A stretch of DNA of 32,000 nucleotides. Origin: Synechocystis sp. PCC 6803 substr. PCC-P (GTDB taxonomy: Bacteria > Cyanobacteriota > Cyanobacteriia > Cyanobacteriales > Microcystaceae). The position numbers and the translations under genes are program-made. Each line of letters begins with the position of its first letter. Within the stretch, counting starts at the first letter, position 1. Positions 5,991 to 29,570 of the stretch are shown piece by piece. Where the stretch lies: NCBI RefSeq assembly GCF_000284455.1, contig NC_017039.1, positions 2,970,001 through 3,002,000 on the forward strand. Direction: 5' to 3'. The notes beneath the pieces are model-generated. The model made no database searches, had not been told where the DNA came from, and saw only the letters and a program-made list of their open reading frames with translations.

Positions 5991-6335
5991 CGTTGGCTAA
6001 AAATCTAGGCAATTAAACTACTCTACTTTCATTATCCTGCGTACCAGTAACGTTAAATCTATACATAAAACTTAACATTCTGCTGGCATCGCTATGGAAA
6101 CCCTGACCGTAGCCGAGGTGAAATCTCCCCAGCTCTAAAAATAAACTTATAATTTACAAGTTTTTATAGTCTTTTTGAGTTACTATGATTTCGAAACTTA
6201 TGAATGATTATGCGAATTAGCCCGGGATGTGGATTTGGCAGGATTTTTCCTTCAGCTTCTCTGGTAAGTTACAAAGAACTATTTTTGATGCTAACAATAG
6301 CCTCAATCACCTAGCCCTGACACCCAATTAGTACA

Positions 6336-7724
6336 ATGTCTGATTCGTCTCTGAAACAAGCCCTATTGAATCTTCCACCAATGGCCTATGAGGCTGACAT
6401 AGTAGGGCGTCTGGTTATTCCCGAAATGATGGCTAAGTGGAACTTTTCCTATTCAGATGGCGAAATCGTACAACAATATAAAGTTGGAAATGGCTTACAA
6501 TTCGTTGATGTTGCAGGTAGAAAAAATTACGGCGATGATATCTTTTCCCACACACTGAATGGGGCAGAAATAATTGTTGAAATTAAACGTAACACAATAG
6601 ACTTAAGTTCAGATAGTAAGAACTATCTGGCGGCGGTTGCCCAATTGAAAAGATATTTGGACCCCAGCGCAGCTAATTGCGAAAAAGTAAAGTGGGGAGT
6701 AATCACGAACGGGAAGCATATTCAGCTTTTTCGTCGCCACGGTAGAACGGTTTATCCTTTCACAACTAACATTGAGTTAACCCCAGATAATATCGATGAA
6801 GCAGTTGGTCTAATTGGTAAATATATGGAAAGTGACCACCGAGCTTTAAAGATTGCTTTATACAATAATAAGGGCGGGGTCGGAAAAACTACAACAGCTA
6901 TTAATTTAGCGGCAACTCTTTGCATTCCTAAGCCTGAAGGTTATGCAAAAAGGGTTTTATTAGTTGATTTTGATCCAAATCAAAAAGATTTGACTGATTT
7001 ACTCAAAATAAAACCAAGCAGAATAAGATTGTCTCAATATCTTGAAGACGTTAAGAACAATAAATCCAACAAGCAAGGTATTATTTCCAAATATGAAATT
7101 AAACTAAAAAACTCGAAAGTTTATAACTGCTTTGATGTTATTCCCGCTGATGAAAGTTTTTTGGGTAAATCTTCCCATGAATTGATGAAAGTTAAAAAAG
7201 GTAGTTTACGGGAAACCCTTTCTCAATTTGCCGATGATTACGATTATATTCTGATTGATGCTCCACCGGGGGATAATTACTTTACCCAAGAGGCAATTAC
7301 TGCCGCTGATGTCATTTTAATGCCTTCAAAACATAACAGTATTAGCTCTTTTAAAAATGCCGCAATGGCCATGAAACAAATTTTGCCCCAACTAGGTAGT
7401 GAAAGAAGGGCATTTAATCCGGAATTAGCAGATCCAACACCATTACCAATCTTTTTCAATGGTGAAAATATAACGGATGCATCAAGGAAACAAGCTGAAC
7501 AGGCAATTCAGGAAATAATTGAAACAGTTAAATTGGAAGACCAAATTGATTTAACCAGTTTTTTCTTCCCTAAGTTAACAGATGCCCAAGAAGATAAAGC
7601 AATTTTTACAATTCCTAATTATGCCTATATTTCATCTATAGCATTTTCCTATCGTCCGGCTGTGTTTACCAGCAAAGTTGCTCGTGGTCATTACAAACTA
7701 TTAATCGAGGAATACTTTATCTAA
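6336..7724 (+). CDS. Fusion protein: N-terminal PD-(D/E)xK / HsdR-N-like nuclease-fold domain + C-terminal ParA/MinD-family deviant Walker A ATPase (462 aa)
   Basis: aa 1-170 follow the pattern of the type I restriction R-subunit N-terminal domain: EADIVGRLVIPEMM, FVD58V, IIVE82IK84R, AQLKRYL and WGVITNGKHIQLF. aa 171-462 are ParA-like, with KIALYNNK179GGVGK184TTTAINLA (deviant Walker A), LLVDFDPNQ (A') and YILID308APPG (Walker B). The gene lies in the AT-rich insert. Confidence 0.85.
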   Translation: MSDSSLKQALLNLPPMAYEADIVGRLVIPEMMAKWNFSYSDGEIVQQYKVGNGLQFVDVAGRKNYGDDIFSHTLNGAEIIVEIKRNTIDLSSDSKNYLAAVAQLKRYLDPSAANCEKVKWGVITNGKHIQLFRRHGRTVYPFTTNIELTPDNIDEAVGLIGKYMESDHRALKIALYNNKGGVGKTTTAINLAATLCIPKPEGYAKRVLLVDFDPNQKDLTDLLKIKPSRIRLSQYLEDVKNNKSNKQGIISKYEIKLKNSKVYNCFDVIPADESFLGKSSHELMKVKKGSLRETLSQFADDYDYILIDAPPGDNYFTQEAITAADVILMPSKHNSISSFKNAAMAMKQILPQLGSERRAFNPELADPTPLPIFFNGENITDASRKQAEQAIQEIIETVKLEDQIDLTSFFFPKLTDAQEDKAIFTIPNYAYISSIAFSYRPAVFTSKVARGHYKLLIEEYFI

Positions 7725-8428
7725 TGAAACAAGAAATTGGCGCTCTACTGCATCTTCACGTTGACGAAATTGAACCACTCTTTGCAACAAAATCACATCA
7801 GTTTTTAGTCGCCAAAGCAGCTGAATCAATTAATCTTTGTGGTGGAAGAAATTGGATTCCTTTAGTTGTTAAACAAACGGGAGAAAGTAGTTTTGTCGCT
7901 GTTGCTAATATCTTCACTTTGGCGGCAGTAAGACAAGCAGGGCTTACAAAAATTTGGTGTATCGTTGCCGATGATGATCAGTTTGTACAACAATCTTCCC
8001 AACTTTTAAGCAAGGAAATTGTGCCCAAAGTAAACTTAACAACGGCAACTAGAGATGAAATTAAACTTGCCCTTGACTATTTAATTAATCGTTCGGTTAA
8101 TCCTTTATCTGGAGTAAAAGTTGCTACTTCACTGGATAAAATATCTAATGCTGAACGTAAATATTGGCAAGAAAGTCTCAAGGATGTTGTTGCTCTTAAA
8201 TGTGGTATAACCAATGGCAAAAAATTAGATATATTCAAGGAAATTTTCTATGTTACTCCTGAACCTCGTCTAATTTCTGATGATGATTTGGGGAAATCAG
8301 GGAATGACTTGAAAAAATTAAGTGTGACTGGACTCAGAAAAATTGCTAAAGAGAGAGGACACTCCGGTTATTCCAAGATGAAAAAAGCTGAACTGCTAAT
8401 TTTATTAGCTGATACTGAGGAATCATAG
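7724..8428 (+). CDS. ParB/Srx-fold-like protein (degenerate, no GxxR box) with C-terminal Rho_N/SAP-like helix-extended-helix (234 aa)
   Basis: The start ATG overlaps the upstream TAA stop (TAATG at 7722-7726). The N-terminal VDEIEP...GGRNWIPLVV...FVAVANIFTLAAVRQAGLTKIWCIV follows the ParB N-domain pattern, but ANIFT occupies the place of G-x-x-R. The C-terminal LKKLSVTGLRKIAKERGHSGYSKMKKAELLILL resembles Rho_N. Confidence 0.7.
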   Translation: MKQEIGALLHLHVDEIEPLFATKSHQFLVAKAAESINLCGGRNWIPLVVKQTGESSFVAVANIFTLAAVRQAGLTKIWCIVADDDQFVQQSSQLLSKEIVPKVNLTTATRDEIKLALDYLINRSVNPLSGVKVATSLDKISNAERKYWQESLKDVVALKCGITNGKKLDIFKEIFYVTPEPRLISDDDLGKSGNDLKKLSVTGLRKIAKERGHSGYSKMKKAELLILLADTEES

Positions 8429-8486
8429 CTGACTAATAGATTATAAGGCAATTTTACTATCCATATTCTTGGGAGTAACTCTCAGC

Positions 8487-8795
8487 TTATTCTAGTACTT
8501 GGAGTTGTGATTGATCACGGTGCATCAACTCCACTAAACCCGACCAAACCATAAAGTCTGCTTCATCGTTCAAAATTCCGCGGAAAAATTGCTCATAGAA
8601 TAACTCCGACGACATTTGATATTTTTTTTCAAACTCATCTAGTTCAATTCTCAAATTCAAAATCCCCCGTTGCAGTTCTTGAATCTGGTAATTAATAACA
8701 CTTTGGGCGAATCTTTCATTATCAATGCCACTGCTGAGAATAGTCTTAAGTTTTTGTTCCGTATCTGGTTGTAACGAGAGTTTTATGTCTAGCAT
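8487..8795 (-). CDS. Small helical hypothetical protein (102 aa), antitoxin-like flavour
   Basis: AT-rich ORF convergent with the ParB-like gene and 41 nt downstream of the amidohydrolase gene on the same strand. The segment FEKKYQMSSELFYEQFFRGILNDEADFMVW resembles small cyanobacterial proteins I recall seeing next to toxin genes. No partner toxin is present here. Confidence 0.5.
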   Translation of the reverse strand: MLDIKLSLQPDTEQKLKTILSSGIDNERFAQSVINYQIQELQRGILNLRIELDEFEKKYQMSSELFYEQFFRGILNDEADFMVWSGLVELMHRDQSQLQVLE

Positions 8796-12701: not shown

Positions 12702-12773
12702 GCGGGTATAGCTCAGTGGTAGAGCGCAACCTTGCCAAGGTTGATGTCGCGCGTTCGAATCGCGTTACCCGCT
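12702..12773 (+). tRNA. tRNA-Gly (anticodon GCC)
   Basis: Cloverleaf read by hand. Acceptor stem is GCGGGTA/TACCCGC, D-arm contains AGCTCAGTGGTAGAGC, and the anticodon stem CAACC/GGTTG carries loop TTGCCAA, giving anticodon GCC. The T-arm is GCGCG-TTCGAAT-CGCGT. The discriminator is T and no CCA is encoded. Confidence 0.93.
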
Positions 12774-12812: not shown

Positions 12813-14069
12813 ATGGCAATGGTTAGTTTTGCCTGGCAGTTTCTCAAGCAGAAAGTGTTTTTTTGGTTGCACAAAAGTCAGGAGAGTGACCATTCTCCCG
12901 AGACCTTGGCGCCATTGCCAGACACCTTGGAAGCAAAACTTCTCCAATCCATTAACTCCCTCGTTACCCCCACCGCCTACATCAAGGCCATTCATTCCGC
13001 CCTAGAAGATAGCCTCCAGGCCTGGCAAAAAAACCTAGAAGCCCCCAATAGCCTGGTGATTCTGGCCAATCCCGTCGAGCCGATCGCCAAAATTTTGCAG
13101 GATAGCTTAAACAGTTGGGATAATGACCTGGAGGTAAAGGTGGTGACCCCCCTGGGGGATTTTCGTCGCCCTTCTGATCCTTTGACCATAACAGCCCAAT
13201 TGCGCCATGCCCTAGAAGCCCAGGGAGGCATTGAGTTTGACGGCCAGGGAGTGGACTTAATCCAGGATGTGGAATGTTTGGAACAGCGCACCACAGTGGT
13301 GGTGATTCCTTCCTTAGAACAATGCTTTCTGCGTTGTATCAGCGGTTGGGACGGCATTGGTTTTTTGCGGGAAATTACTGTGCAGAATCCTCAATACTTC
13401 TGGTTGATTGGTTGTAATTCCTGGGCCTGGGACTTTTTGGATTTTGTCAGCCAAATTAGCGCTTATTTTGATGACGTGCGTCCTCTGCCAACCTTAACGG
13501 GGGAAATGCTCCGCAGTTGGTTAATCCCCCTCACAGGGCAATGGGGCACTATTAAGCCAGAAGGCGATCTTGCCAACTTAATTAGTGTTAATTCATCTAA
13601 TTCATCTTCATCAGATGCCCAGGCAGAGGTCGAACTTTATTGGCAAAACCTTGCGAACTGCTCCCAGGGGATCGGTTCCATTGCGGCTAAGCTTTGGTTA
13701 CGGAGTCTGCGGATCAAAAAGCAAGTGATGGAAAGGGAAAACCCAGCTCAATCGGTGCTCAATACCAAAGAAAATGAGGACCAAATCTGCCCCTTGTTCC
13801 AGGTCAATCCCGCCCAGCCGAGCTTACCGTCCTTCACCAACCTAGATTTGTATTTGCTCCACTCCTTGATGATCCACGGCCGCATTAGTCCAGCGCACTT
13901 GGCCCTGAGCTTAGGGGAACCGGAAAGTCAAATCCAAGCTAGGGTACAGCGGCTCCTACGGGAAGATATTTTGGTACGTCGTTGGGGGGATTTAATTATT
14001 TGCCCCACCTACTATCAACAACTGCAAAGTGAATTGGCCAATAATAATTTCTTTGTGGGGGGAAGATGA
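12813..14069 (+). CDS. Hypothetical protein with C-terminal winged-helix-like segment (418 aa)
   Basis: Long ORF. The C-terminal LYLLHSLMIHGRISPAHLALSLGEPESQIQARVQRLLREDILVRR looks like a MarR/wHTH recognition unit. Its stop overlaps the start of the next gene (ATGA at 14066-14069). Confidence 0.6.
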   Translation: MAMVSFAWQFLKQKVFFWLHKSQESDHSPETLAPLPDTLEAKLLQSINSLVTPTAYIKAIHSALEDSLQAWQKNLEAPNSLVILANPVEPIAKILQDSLNSWDNDLEVKVVTPLGDFRRPSDPLTITAQLRHALEAQGGIEFDGQGVDLIQDVECLEQRTTVVVIPSLEQCFLRCISGWDGIGFLREITVQNPQYFWLIGCNSWAWDFLDFVSQISAYFDDVRPLPTLTGEMLRSWLIPLTGQWGTIKPEGDLANLISVNSSNSSSSDAQAEVELYWQNLANCSQGIGSIAAKLWLRSLRIKKQVMERENPAQSVLNTKENEDQICPLFQVNPAQPSLPSFTNLDLYLLHSLMIHGRISPAHLALSLGEPESQIQARVQRLLREDILVRRWGDLIICPTYYQQLQSELANNNFFVGGR

Positions 14070-26820: not shown

Positions 26821-26907
26821 TGATTATCGATCAAGCAAAACTGTGATTCACGGGATTGGCGATCGCCTAAGGAAGAGATGGGGATAGAGAAATGATGCTA
26901 GAATTTG

Positions 26908-28388
<1,481 letters not shown>

Positions 28389-28610: not shown

Positions 28611-29570
28611 TTGATGGGGAACAATTTTGCCCAACTGAAGCGGTTGATTAACTTTTTTCGGACTGTGATTTTACCAGCCCGCATCAGTCAGTTGATATTA
28701 CAGACCTTTCTGAAATGGCAAAAAGATAACTGCATGGATATGGGGGCCGCCCTAGCGTACTATGCCCTCTTTTCCCTGTTTCCCATCTGTTTAGTAATGC
28801 TTAGCATTGCTGGTAGATTATTAGGGGCAGATTCAAATTATTATCTACAGCTCATTAGCTTTGCCCAAAATATTTTACCGGAACAACCCTTTAAGGTTTT
28901 TCAGCAAGCTTTGACTAATCTTAACCAAAGTAGCTTTAGTGCTGGACTCATTGGTTTTGGTATTTTGGTTCTCACTGCTAGTCGTATTTTTGATGCTTTG
29001 AATCAAAGTGTAAAGAAAATCTGGTCGGTGGTTCATCAGCCCAAGGAAAATATTGGAGTTAAGCACCACGCCTTCAATTTTATCAGGAATAAAATCCTCG
29101 CTTTTTTGCTGGTTTTAAGTACAGTGATGGTATTTTTGCTATCCATATTTGCCAATTTAGCCGCTAAAATTTTCCTCACCGTACTGGCGGAATTTGGACA
29201 GTCCATTCCTTGGGTTACCTTTGACAGTTTAGGATTAATTACCACTCTACAAACTAGTATTTCTTACTTTCTCATTACCGTAGTTATTATCACTCTATTC
29301 AAAGTTTTGCCTCCCGTCCGTCTGCAATGGTGGGATATTTTTCCCGGCGCAATTTTAACTGCGGCCACCATGATGGCCTTACAAAATGCAGTTGGCAGTG
29401 GCATTATTCGCATTGGTGAAAACTTACAAGCTTACGGTGTGGTGGGCAATGTAATGGTATTGTTATTGTGGATTTATTTGATTTTTCAGGTGTTTTTTAT
29501 TGGTTGCGAGTTTACCTTTGTATTTACCTATATTTTTGGTAGTCGTCACCAGAAAGAAAAACCATTTTAG
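28611..29570 (+). CDS. YihY/BrkB-family inner membrane protein (319 aa; the ATG at 28614 is the probable start)
   Basis: The GAALAYYALFSLFPICLVML motif and about six hydrophobic helices are typical of the YihY/virulence factor BrkB family. The gene is AT-rich and I saw no HIP1 site in it. Confidence 0.85.
   Translation: MMGNNFAQLKRLINFFRTVILPARISQLILQTFLKWQKDNCMDMGAALAYYALFSLFPICLVMLSIAGRLLGADSNYYLQLISFAQNILPEQPFKVFQQALTNLNQSSFSAGLIGFGILVLTASRIFDALNQSVKKIWSVVHQPKENIGVKHHAFNFIRNKILAFLLVLSTVMVFLLSIFANLAAKIFLTVLAEFGQSIPWVTFDSLGLITTLQTSISYFLITVVIITLFKVLPPVRLQWWDIFPGAILTAATMMALQNAVGSGIIRIGENLQAYGVVGNVMVLLLWIYLIFQVFFIGCEFTFVFTYIFGSRHQKEKPF

Follow-up and report, generated by a model that had tools for sequence, protein, structure and literature searches.

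A ParB/Srx-like protein without the arginine box and its predicted nuclease-ParA partner form a conserved two-gene cassette in cyanobacteria

Since 2019, proteins of the ParB fold have been understood as nucleoside triphosphate (NTP)-gated switches. The subject of this work is a predicted member of this fold from Synechocystis sp. PCC 6803 substr. PCC-P, encoded together with a ParA-type ATPase in a stretch of 32,000 nt (NC_017039.1, positions 2,970,001-3,002,000 of the forward strand), hereafter the window. The open reading frame (ORF) of the ParB/Srx-like protein occupies positions 7724-8428 of the window (234 aa) and directly follows the ATPase gene (6336-7724, 462 aa). All features are numbered within the window and lie on its forward strand unless stated otherwise.

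The closest described counterparts are ParB/Spo0J of the ParABS systems and its relatives Noc, KorB, VirB and BisD, in which the N-domain fold and the register of strands and helices are like those predicted here. ParB/Spo0J is also encoded directly downstream of, and overlapping, the gene for a ParA-type deviant Walker A ATPase. In contrast to ParB/Spo0J, the Synechocystis protein is without boxes I and II and the LG-R/K-GL peptide, no counterpart of box III aligns, no parS-type helix-turn-helix (HTH) is detectable, a Rho_N/HeH tail stands in place of the dimerisation domain, and the partner ParA carries an extra, predicted PD-(D/E)xK domain. PadC of Myxococcus xanthus, which recruits ParA to bactofilin, is a ParB/Srx-fold ParA adaptor and likewise not a centromere clamp, but its intact cytidine triphosphate (CTP) pocket and its ParA-binding motif (bioRxiv 10.1101/2025.10.10.680097) are both absent here. 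By analogy, the ParB-like protein would work most like ParB or a PadC-type adaptor.

The McdA/McdB system for carboxysome positioning is also a cyanobacterial two-gene module with a ParA-type ATPase, and its adaptor is not a CTP-dependent ParB. McdB, however, consists mostly of disordered or coiled-coil sequence and is without the ParB fold, McdA lacks a nuclease domain, and the genes described here have no conserved link to carboxysome genes, the neighbouring Raf1 being Synechocystis-specific. The nearest outgroup is found in the ParB domains of polyvalent proteins from phages and conjugative elements, in which the family signature GRNW-x-P ... VVGN-x-F ... W is repeated in tandem, whereas the present protein is small, cellular and strictly ParA-linked. 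The DdrB-like ParB domains keep the active-site arginine and are unlinked to ParA (Iyer et al. 2017, PMC5512222); no ddrB-type family is among the Pfam families listed for the ParB-like family. The minimal fold of the enzymatic ParB/Srx proteins sulfiredoxin, SbnI and SerK matches the predicted N-domain. These enzymes keep a phosphate-binding GxxR or GCHR motif and bind ATP or ADP, whereas this position reads A-N-I-F in the ParB-like protein. As to the tail, the N-terminal bundle of Rho and the SAP, LEM and HeH domains are modules of the same type, but here the module is C-terminal, isolated and placed behind a linker, which implies a probable task in nucleic-acid tethering and not a Rho function.

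The N-terminal ParB/Srx-like domain

The window protein alone gave no ParB match in Pfam, NCBIfam or PADLOC, and family-wide scans and profile-profile comparison were therefore needed. Pfam ParB_N (PF02195) was matched at E<=1 by 37 of 42 family members (best 3.8e-6). Because a profile search against PDB sequences was topped by chance matches to FtsY (E about 0.03-0.04), with ParB, Noc and Spo0J matching weakly, a control profile (A5) was built from nine annotated ParB/Spo0J proteins of plasmid records, in whose alignment QPR, GERRxR and ENxxR are all invariant. The family aligned to this profile with hhalign over 75 columns (residues 7-83) at a probability of 93% and E 3.4e-7. In the resulting register VDEIEP corresponds to ITELRP of ParB, WIPLVV to LQPLIA, FVAVANIFTLAAVRQAGL to YEIVAGERRYRAAKEAGL, and IWCIV to VPAVV. 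An earlier inspection of the letters of this DNA (hereafter the sequence-only reading), whose quoted strings are all present in the product of 7724-8428, had placed the N-terminal ~85 aa on the ParB N-domain pattern; its register is reproduced by hhalign, and two further alignments agree.

An AlphaFold model of the protein, computed with the family alignment as input, has a mean predicted local distance difference test (pLDDT) score of 90. Its best Foldseek matches in the PDB are Noc (7nfu, E 9e-7), ParB bound to cytidine diphosphate (CDP) or CTPgammaS, PadC (6ryk, E 2.4e-4), sulfiredoxin (6ky4, template modelling (TM) score 0.72, target-normalised), KorB and SbnI. In a viral structure library, all named matches except one were ParB/Srx-type proteins. 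Profile alignment and model together assign residues 1-85 (7724-7978), predicted to form an arginine-less N-domain, to the ParB/Srx (ParB-CTPase fold) superfamily, and the protein should be filed under this superfamily, not as a ParB.

Boxes I and II, nucleotide motifs of ParB, are lost from this domain. At the box II-equivalent (7904-7924, residues 61-67) the protein reads A-N-I-F-T-L-A where ParB has A-G-E-R-R-Y-R. GNSFIYA is the family's most frequent form, with N62 in 83/83 and F64 in 81/83 members, and a lysine or arginine occurs anywhere in positions 61-67 in just one of the 83. The proposal that A-N-I-F-T occupies the G-x-x-R position, leaving no arginine box there, is borne out by the profile alignment and by these counts; the sulfiredoxin motif F-G-G-C-H-R is not found at this position either. 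The box I-equivalent (7784-7798, residues 21-25) is A-T-K-S-H, against Y-Q-P-R-K in ParB: QPR aligns with T22-K-S24, the commonest family residues at 21-25 are G-T-D-A-P, and no member of the whole ParB-like family has QPR there. As to box III (ENxxR), the profile alignment stops at residue 83, ahead of the motif position, and the family has L95-x-x-E98 and N104-L105 with no ENxxR. The LG-R/K-GL ParA-binding motif has no counterpart, the profile alignment beginning at about Spo0J residue 23; the N-terminus is M-K-Q-E-I-G-A-L-L, and the first 10 residues are without lysine or arginine in 57 of 70 members. The C-terminal dimerisation domain of ParB was not found, the C-terminus consisting of a linker and the Rho_N/HeH module. 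Of the nine canonical ParB features tested, box I, box II, the ParA-binding motif and the dimerisation domain are lacking, and no Pfam HTH was matched.

In a 2025 survey of the fold, none of the binders tested still bound its NTP once the arginine in GxxR had been replaced by alanine (bioRxiv 10.1101/2025.10.10.680097). Because of this result and the loss of boxes I and II, it is unlikely that the ParB-like protein forms a CTP-gated clamp, a conclusion well supported by the alignments. The sequence-only reading had doubted clamp-type CTPase behaviour on the basis of box II, and the case is strengthened by the absence of box I, the LG-R/K-GL motif and the dimerisation domain.

The domain does not appear to have decayed, since it has an invariant residue set of its own, common to phage polyvalent proteins. 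An R42-N43-W44 triad just before strand beta-2 (7847-7855) is kept with R in 82/83, N in 83/83 and W in 83/83 members; P46, N62, W78 and C79 are likewise present in all 83, and K50 in 77. Large proteins of phages or mobile elements make up the distant relatives (P0326, P0229, P0246, P0248, P0250), and such proteins carry one or two domain copies with GRNW-x-P ... VVGN-x-F ... W, one of them in a Mu-type portal fusion. An exhaustive hidden Markov model (HMM) search of 1.84 billion representatives returned only 189 relatives at E<=1e-3. Judged by this conservation, the arginine-less domain is a distinct, selected branch of the fold and not a degenerate relic. Two invariant cysteines, C79 (7958-7960, in W-C-I-I) and C160 (8201-8203, in L-K-C-G-I-T), lie away from the sulfiredoxin catalytic position. 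Rosetta-stone fusions of the ATPase and the ParB-like protein were also considered and rejected, the long domain-bearing proteins being the phage and mobile-element polyvalent proteins instead.

Since this residue constellation is kept and is common to phage polyvalent proteins, the domain may still bind some ligand. A switch with a rebuilt pocket, in which R42, K50 and N62 would replace the GxxR arginines, an NTP or another small ligand would still be bound and the protein would cycle as other ParB-fold switches do, is unlikely in our judgement. The near-invariance of R42, N43, W44, P46 and N62 (82-83/83), together with K50, speaks for it, as does the retention of the signature in distant phage proteins, which argues that the site is under selection, and the ParB fold is able to accommodate CTP, ATP and GTP (bioRxiv 10.1101/2025.10.10.680097). 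Nevertheless, uncharged residues replace all three box II arginines and the box I QPR, the alanine substitutions in GxxR abolished binding as described above, and no counterpart of box III ENxxR or of a clamp-closing dimerisation domain was found.

The predicted nuclease-ParA partner and the two-gene cassette

The C-terminal part of the ATPase (about residues 170-462) is a ParA/Soj-type deviant Walker A domain, matched in Pfam by AAA_31 (E 1.8e-28) and also by CbiA, MipZ and ParA. Its N-terminal part (6336-6830, about residues 1-165) resembles HSDR_N_2, the nuclease family of type I restriction R-subunits, at E 1e-3 in the window ATPase; among 39 homologs, HSDR_N_2 was matched by 30 (best 2e-7), HSDR_N by 9 and MmeI_N by 2. 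A search with this domain alone against PDB sequences gave no match. Invariant in the 39 homologs are E43, D58, E82-x-K84, Q103 and NKGGVGKTT, and the AlphaFold model (pLDDT 89.5, predicted TM score (pTM) 0.90) has an alpha-beta-beta-beta-alpha-beta arrangement around the invariant nuclease residues. The best Foldseek matches of the ATPase are Soj, ParA and McdA (6nop, E 8e-12). On the strength of profiles, conservation and model, the N-domain is assigned to the PD-(D/E)xK superfamily with an intact predicted catalytic set. No published description of a nuclease-ParA fusion was found.

The two genes are firmly linked. An ATPase homolog of 444-492 aa lies immediately upstream of the ParB-like gene in 80 of 85 loci, and the other five loci begin too near a contig end. 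In the window the genes meet in a TAATG stop/start overlap (7722-7726), with 1 nt common to the TAA of the ATPase (7722-7724) and the ATG of the ParB-like protein (7724-7726). That this overlap couples the ORF to the ATPase gene had been proposed from the window alone; a 4-nt or 1-nt overlap is seen in about 66 of 79 loci (55 with 4 nt and 11 with 1 nt, 66 in all). Any further gene near the pair is common to at most 8 of the 85 loci, and the pairwise identities of the ATPase and the ParB-like protein correlate (r = 0.86). The pair is a conserved two-gene cassette of cyanobacteria, with obligatory operon linkage and co-inheritance.

The ParB-like family comprises 73 clusters at 90% identity, nearly all cyanobacterial where named. 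A scan of 185,579 species genomes, with patterns that recover 84% of the known family members, confirmed relatives in at least 269, and the taxon, where the listed scan records give one, is with few exceptions cyanobacterial (Nostoc, Microcystis, Leptolyngbya, Scytonema, Calothrix, Geminocystis and others). These 269 species presumably make up a minority of the cyanobacterial species in GTDB. Because a family of this size and spread exists, ORF 7724-8428 is judged from its sequence relatives to be a genuine conserved protein, far beyond chance, and not an accidental reading frame. The closest relatives are those of Synechocystis PCC 6714, with an identity of 80% for the ParB-like protein and 87% for the ATPase and with identical synteny. 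Among public assemblies, 541 blocks contain the identical ParB-like sequence beside the same genes, which fits a laboratory strain that has been resequenced many times.

The cassette sits between unrelated genes in different genomes, and its GC content is below that of the flanks in 47 of 49 loci, by ~6 points on average. In the window, both genes and a gene for a 102-aa protein on the opposite strand form a low-GC stretch of ~36-40% GC between flanks of ~50-55%. The 102-aa ORF (8487-8795, reverse strand) partly matches antitoxin TumA (NCBIfam E 1.6e-7, well short of the cutoff) and PADLOC PDC-M44A (E 1.8e-8), with no adjoining toxin ORF evident; it has the same position in PCC 6714 and is unlinked to the cassette in other cyanobacteria. 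The 144 immediate neighbours across the loci are mostly housekeeping genes, e.g. those for ClpX, GlyS, photosystem II (PSII) proteins and LptFG, with few integrase, XisI or Uma2 genes among them, and some loci adjoin HicAB, TnpB, integrase or XisI genes. A defence-island context as a general property is rejected on this account. PADLOC 2.0 assigned 0 families to the ParB-like protein and gave for the ATPase a weak match in the P-loop region (PDC-M28B, E 3.8e-4). A defence role is possible from the domain content, and the context does not point to one.

One possible view of the biological role, which we think less likely than not, is that of a conflict or surveillance module, in which the ATP sandwich dimer of the ParA domain would pair two PD-(D/E)xK domains on DNA for cutting. 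The ParB-like protein would then be a sensor or an antitoxin-like safety subunit, in anti-phage or anti-plasmid defence or in addiction. As a view of the role, it does not conflict with the adaptor mechanism proposed below. The invariance of the nuclease catalytic set, the self-contained nature of the cassette at differing chromosomal sites, its low GC content, the outgroup in phage and mobile-element polyvalent proteins (the Mu-portal fusion included), the HicAB, TnpB, integrase or XisI genes beside some loci and the TumA-like/PDC-M44A gene in the same low-GC island of the window are all in keeping with it. They have to be set against the lack of a PADLOC model for the ParB-like protein, the weak P-loop match of the ATPase, the scarcity of defence and mobile genes among the 144 neighbours, and the fact that identity broadly tracks taxonomy and that PCC 6803 and PCC 6714 are syntenic, which fits long vertical residence. 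The more specific proposal of a previously undescribed DNA-surveillance system, in which ATP-dependent ParA dimerisation would assemble the nuclease and a DNA-tethered, NTP-independent ParB-fold protein would target or restrain it, appears doubtful on the sequence evidence.

The middle domain, the C-terminal tail and the Rho label

Residues 100-180 (8021-8263) form a family-specific helical middle domain, with helices at 110-122, 133-142, 153-157 and 166-172 (pLDDT >90 in the AlphaFold model) and an invariant L-K-C-G-I-T segment whose G-I-T is turn-like. It has no Pfam match and no significant match among PDB sequences. A comparison of residues 96-180 with the HTH and C-terminal part of ParB by hhalign gave a probability of 1%, and no Pfam HTH family was matched; Foldseek alignments to Noc and ParB span >200 columns, but with a root-mean-square deviation (rmsd) of 13-17 A. 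In variants of 311-313 aa (P0004, P0005, P0013, P0017) this domain of ~80 aa is tandemly duplicated. A flexible linker follows at residues 181-194 (8264-8305, pLDDT 49-67), variable in length and sequence in the family alignment.

Residues 195-225 (8306-8398) make up a Rho_N/SAP/HeH helix-extended-helix tail. PF07498 (Rho_N) matches them at E 1.5e-5 with 25.3 bits (gathering score 24.9), and family-wide Rho_N is found in 39/42 members (best 1.3e-10), SAP (PF02037) in 36/42 and HeH (PF12949) in 17/42; the tail also matches phrog_2724 at E 2.6e-8. The sequence-only reading had recognised such a Rho_N/SAP-like module in the last ~35 aa, and with this score above the Pfam cutoff both profile similarities that it named for checking, to ParB/Srx (hhalign) and to Rho_N, are significant. 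In relatives P0029 and P0073 a ComEA-type HhH module (HHH_3/HHH) replaces the Rho_N tail. ComEA-type HhH modules are non-specific binders of double-stranded DNA. This substitution in two relatives favours DNA over RNA as the probable target of the tail, and thereby DNA tethering as its task. The "DNA- or RNA-sensing adaptor" role suggested earlier for the protein is plausible in the light of its domains.

The Rho_N match has given rise to database names such as "transcription termination factor rho family protein", and slr0106, with which the gene is probably identical (see below), has been termed "the Rho termination factor" (PMC12454622). That the protein is a Rho-type transcription termination factor is almost certainly wrong. 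Only the 31 aa of residues 195-225 resemble Rho, corresponding to the first 31 of 43 positions of the Rho_N model, whereas the remainder of the 234-aa protein is ParB/Srx-like, and neither a cold-shock-type RNA-binding domain nor a RecA-type ATPase domain was found with Pfam and NCBIfam. The label, in databases as in PMC12454622, is a misannotation refuted by domain content. To our knowledge, cyanobacteria are a phylum without Rho.

Expression, upstream region and proposed function

The gene upstream of the cassette encodes Raf1 (sll0102 in PCC 6803). The gene order around sll0102, and the paper that names slr0106 as the Rho termination factor, indicate that the ATPase and ParB-like genes are probably slr0105 and slr0106 of the PCC 6803 lineage. 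In the literature searched, neither a functional study of slr0105/slr0106 nor an account of the two-gene architecture was found; what is known of their expression comes from published surveys. In a lexA mutant both genes were derepressed, slr0105 8.2x and slr0106 5.6x (PMC4759255). A search upstream of the operon for the Synechocystis LexA motif TTTTGWTNAC (PMC4759255), with up to 1 mismatch allowed, gave no match, and the LexA effect may for this reason be indirect. Both proteins have been detected by proteomics: Slr0105 is more abundant in Deg-protease mutants with lowered LexA (PMC4877387), Slr0106 is increased in a dacA mutant (PMC12454622), and Slr0106 and "BrkB" were among three unknown proteins that were >8-fold up in a lactate-producing strain (PMC4526308). 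A gene for a BrkB-family membrane protein lies in the window at 28611-29570, 20 kb from the cassette, and is a candidate for this "BrkB".

Three copies of AAACTTA (6068, 6143 and 6194) lie upstream of the operon, within a span of 133 bp. The sequence-only reading had named upstream AAACTTA sites for a binding assay; window-wide, 9 copies were found against 6.0 expected, which is not above chance, and the sites are not conserved in other loci. A dyad formed by the copy at 6143, AAACTT-N9-AAGTTT (6143-6163, upstream intergenic), is a weakly supported candidate operator. In PCC 6714 (L098) it reads AAATTT-N9-AAATTT, with both arms changed and the palindrome kept, a single and anecdotal case of covariation; with 91% identity to PCC 6714, footprinting of the upstream region told little on the whole. 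A k-mer comparison of the upstream regions of 69 loci gave no common operator or parS-like motif. Downstream, a terminator-like hairpin (8469-8485), detected by consensus scan only, lies 41 nt past the stop codon.

These observations bear on whether the cassette could be a bona fide partition or positioning system, for DNA copies or nucleoid cargo in polyploid cyanobacteria, with the ParB-like protein as centromere or cargo adaptor, in the manner of ParB in ParABS or McdB in McdAB. We regard this as very unlikely, although the gene order, ParA before a translationally coupled adaptor, is that of type I par loci, the ParA domain is nearest to Soj, ParA and McdA, and the AAACTTA copies lie upstream together with the dyad, whose symmetry survives two changes in PCC 6714. 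The ParA-stimulating basic N-terminal peptide is missing, homology to the ParB HTH was not found, no repeat is conserved across genera and the AAACTTA count is at chance level. Furthermore, the family was confirmed in only 269 of the 185,579 species genomes scanned, the cassette occupies unrelated chromosomal contexts, and a nuclease domain on a partition ATPase would be unexplained.

Elsewhere in the window, a thiamine pyrophosphate (TPP) riboswitch (Rfam RF00059, 63.8 bits; 26906-27001) lies directly upstream of thiC (27009-28388), an ordinary arrangement, and a tRNA-Gly (GCC) gene is found at 12702-12773. For the sizeable ORFs at 43-1050 (335 aa) and 12813-14069 (418 aa), no Pfam family was matched at E<=1e-5.

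The reading that we prefer, with about even confidence in it, is that the ParB-like protein is tethered to DNA and, independently of NTP and without CTP-gated clamping, acts on the nuclease-ParA as an adaptor or regulator. The tail, maybe aided by the helical domain, would hold the protein on DNA without sequence specificity. The ParB-fold domain, with its new residue set (R42-N43-W44, N62, W78-C79), would serve as a protein-protein or ligand-sensing surface, and through this face the protein would engage the ATP-bound dimer of the nuclease-ParA, recruiting or regulating the ATPase on DNA, and no CTP-gated sliding clamp would be formed. Foreign-DNA surveillance, DNA maintenance and the positioning of cargo are candidate biological roles for the pair.

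Several points weigh against this adaptor reading. No upstream or centromere-like site is conserved across genera, the Rho_N match of the window protein exceeds the Pfam cutoff by just 0.4 bits, and the role given to the middle domain is a guess, as that domain has no detectable homology. The R42/N43/W44/K50/N62 set could rebuild a pocket for a nucleotide or another ligand, and the identification with slr0106 comes from gene order and annotation, not from a sequence match.

For the family, the comparison means that the label "Rho termination factor", which is spreading through the databases, can be corrected, and that a ParB-like family has kept its ParA partner, but with a different strictly conserved surface in place of the nucleotide motifs. 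How a ParA-type ATPase may be controlled without CTP or the canonical Lys/Arg peptide can conveniently be studied in this family, since the cassette occurs in at least 269 cyanobacterial species including the model strain Synechocystis PCC 6803, which expresses both proteins and has well-established genetics. Why a ParA should bear a nuclease domain is a further question. If the surveillance view were true, these cyanobacteria would have turned ParABS, a machinery that moves DNA, into one that cuts or guards it.

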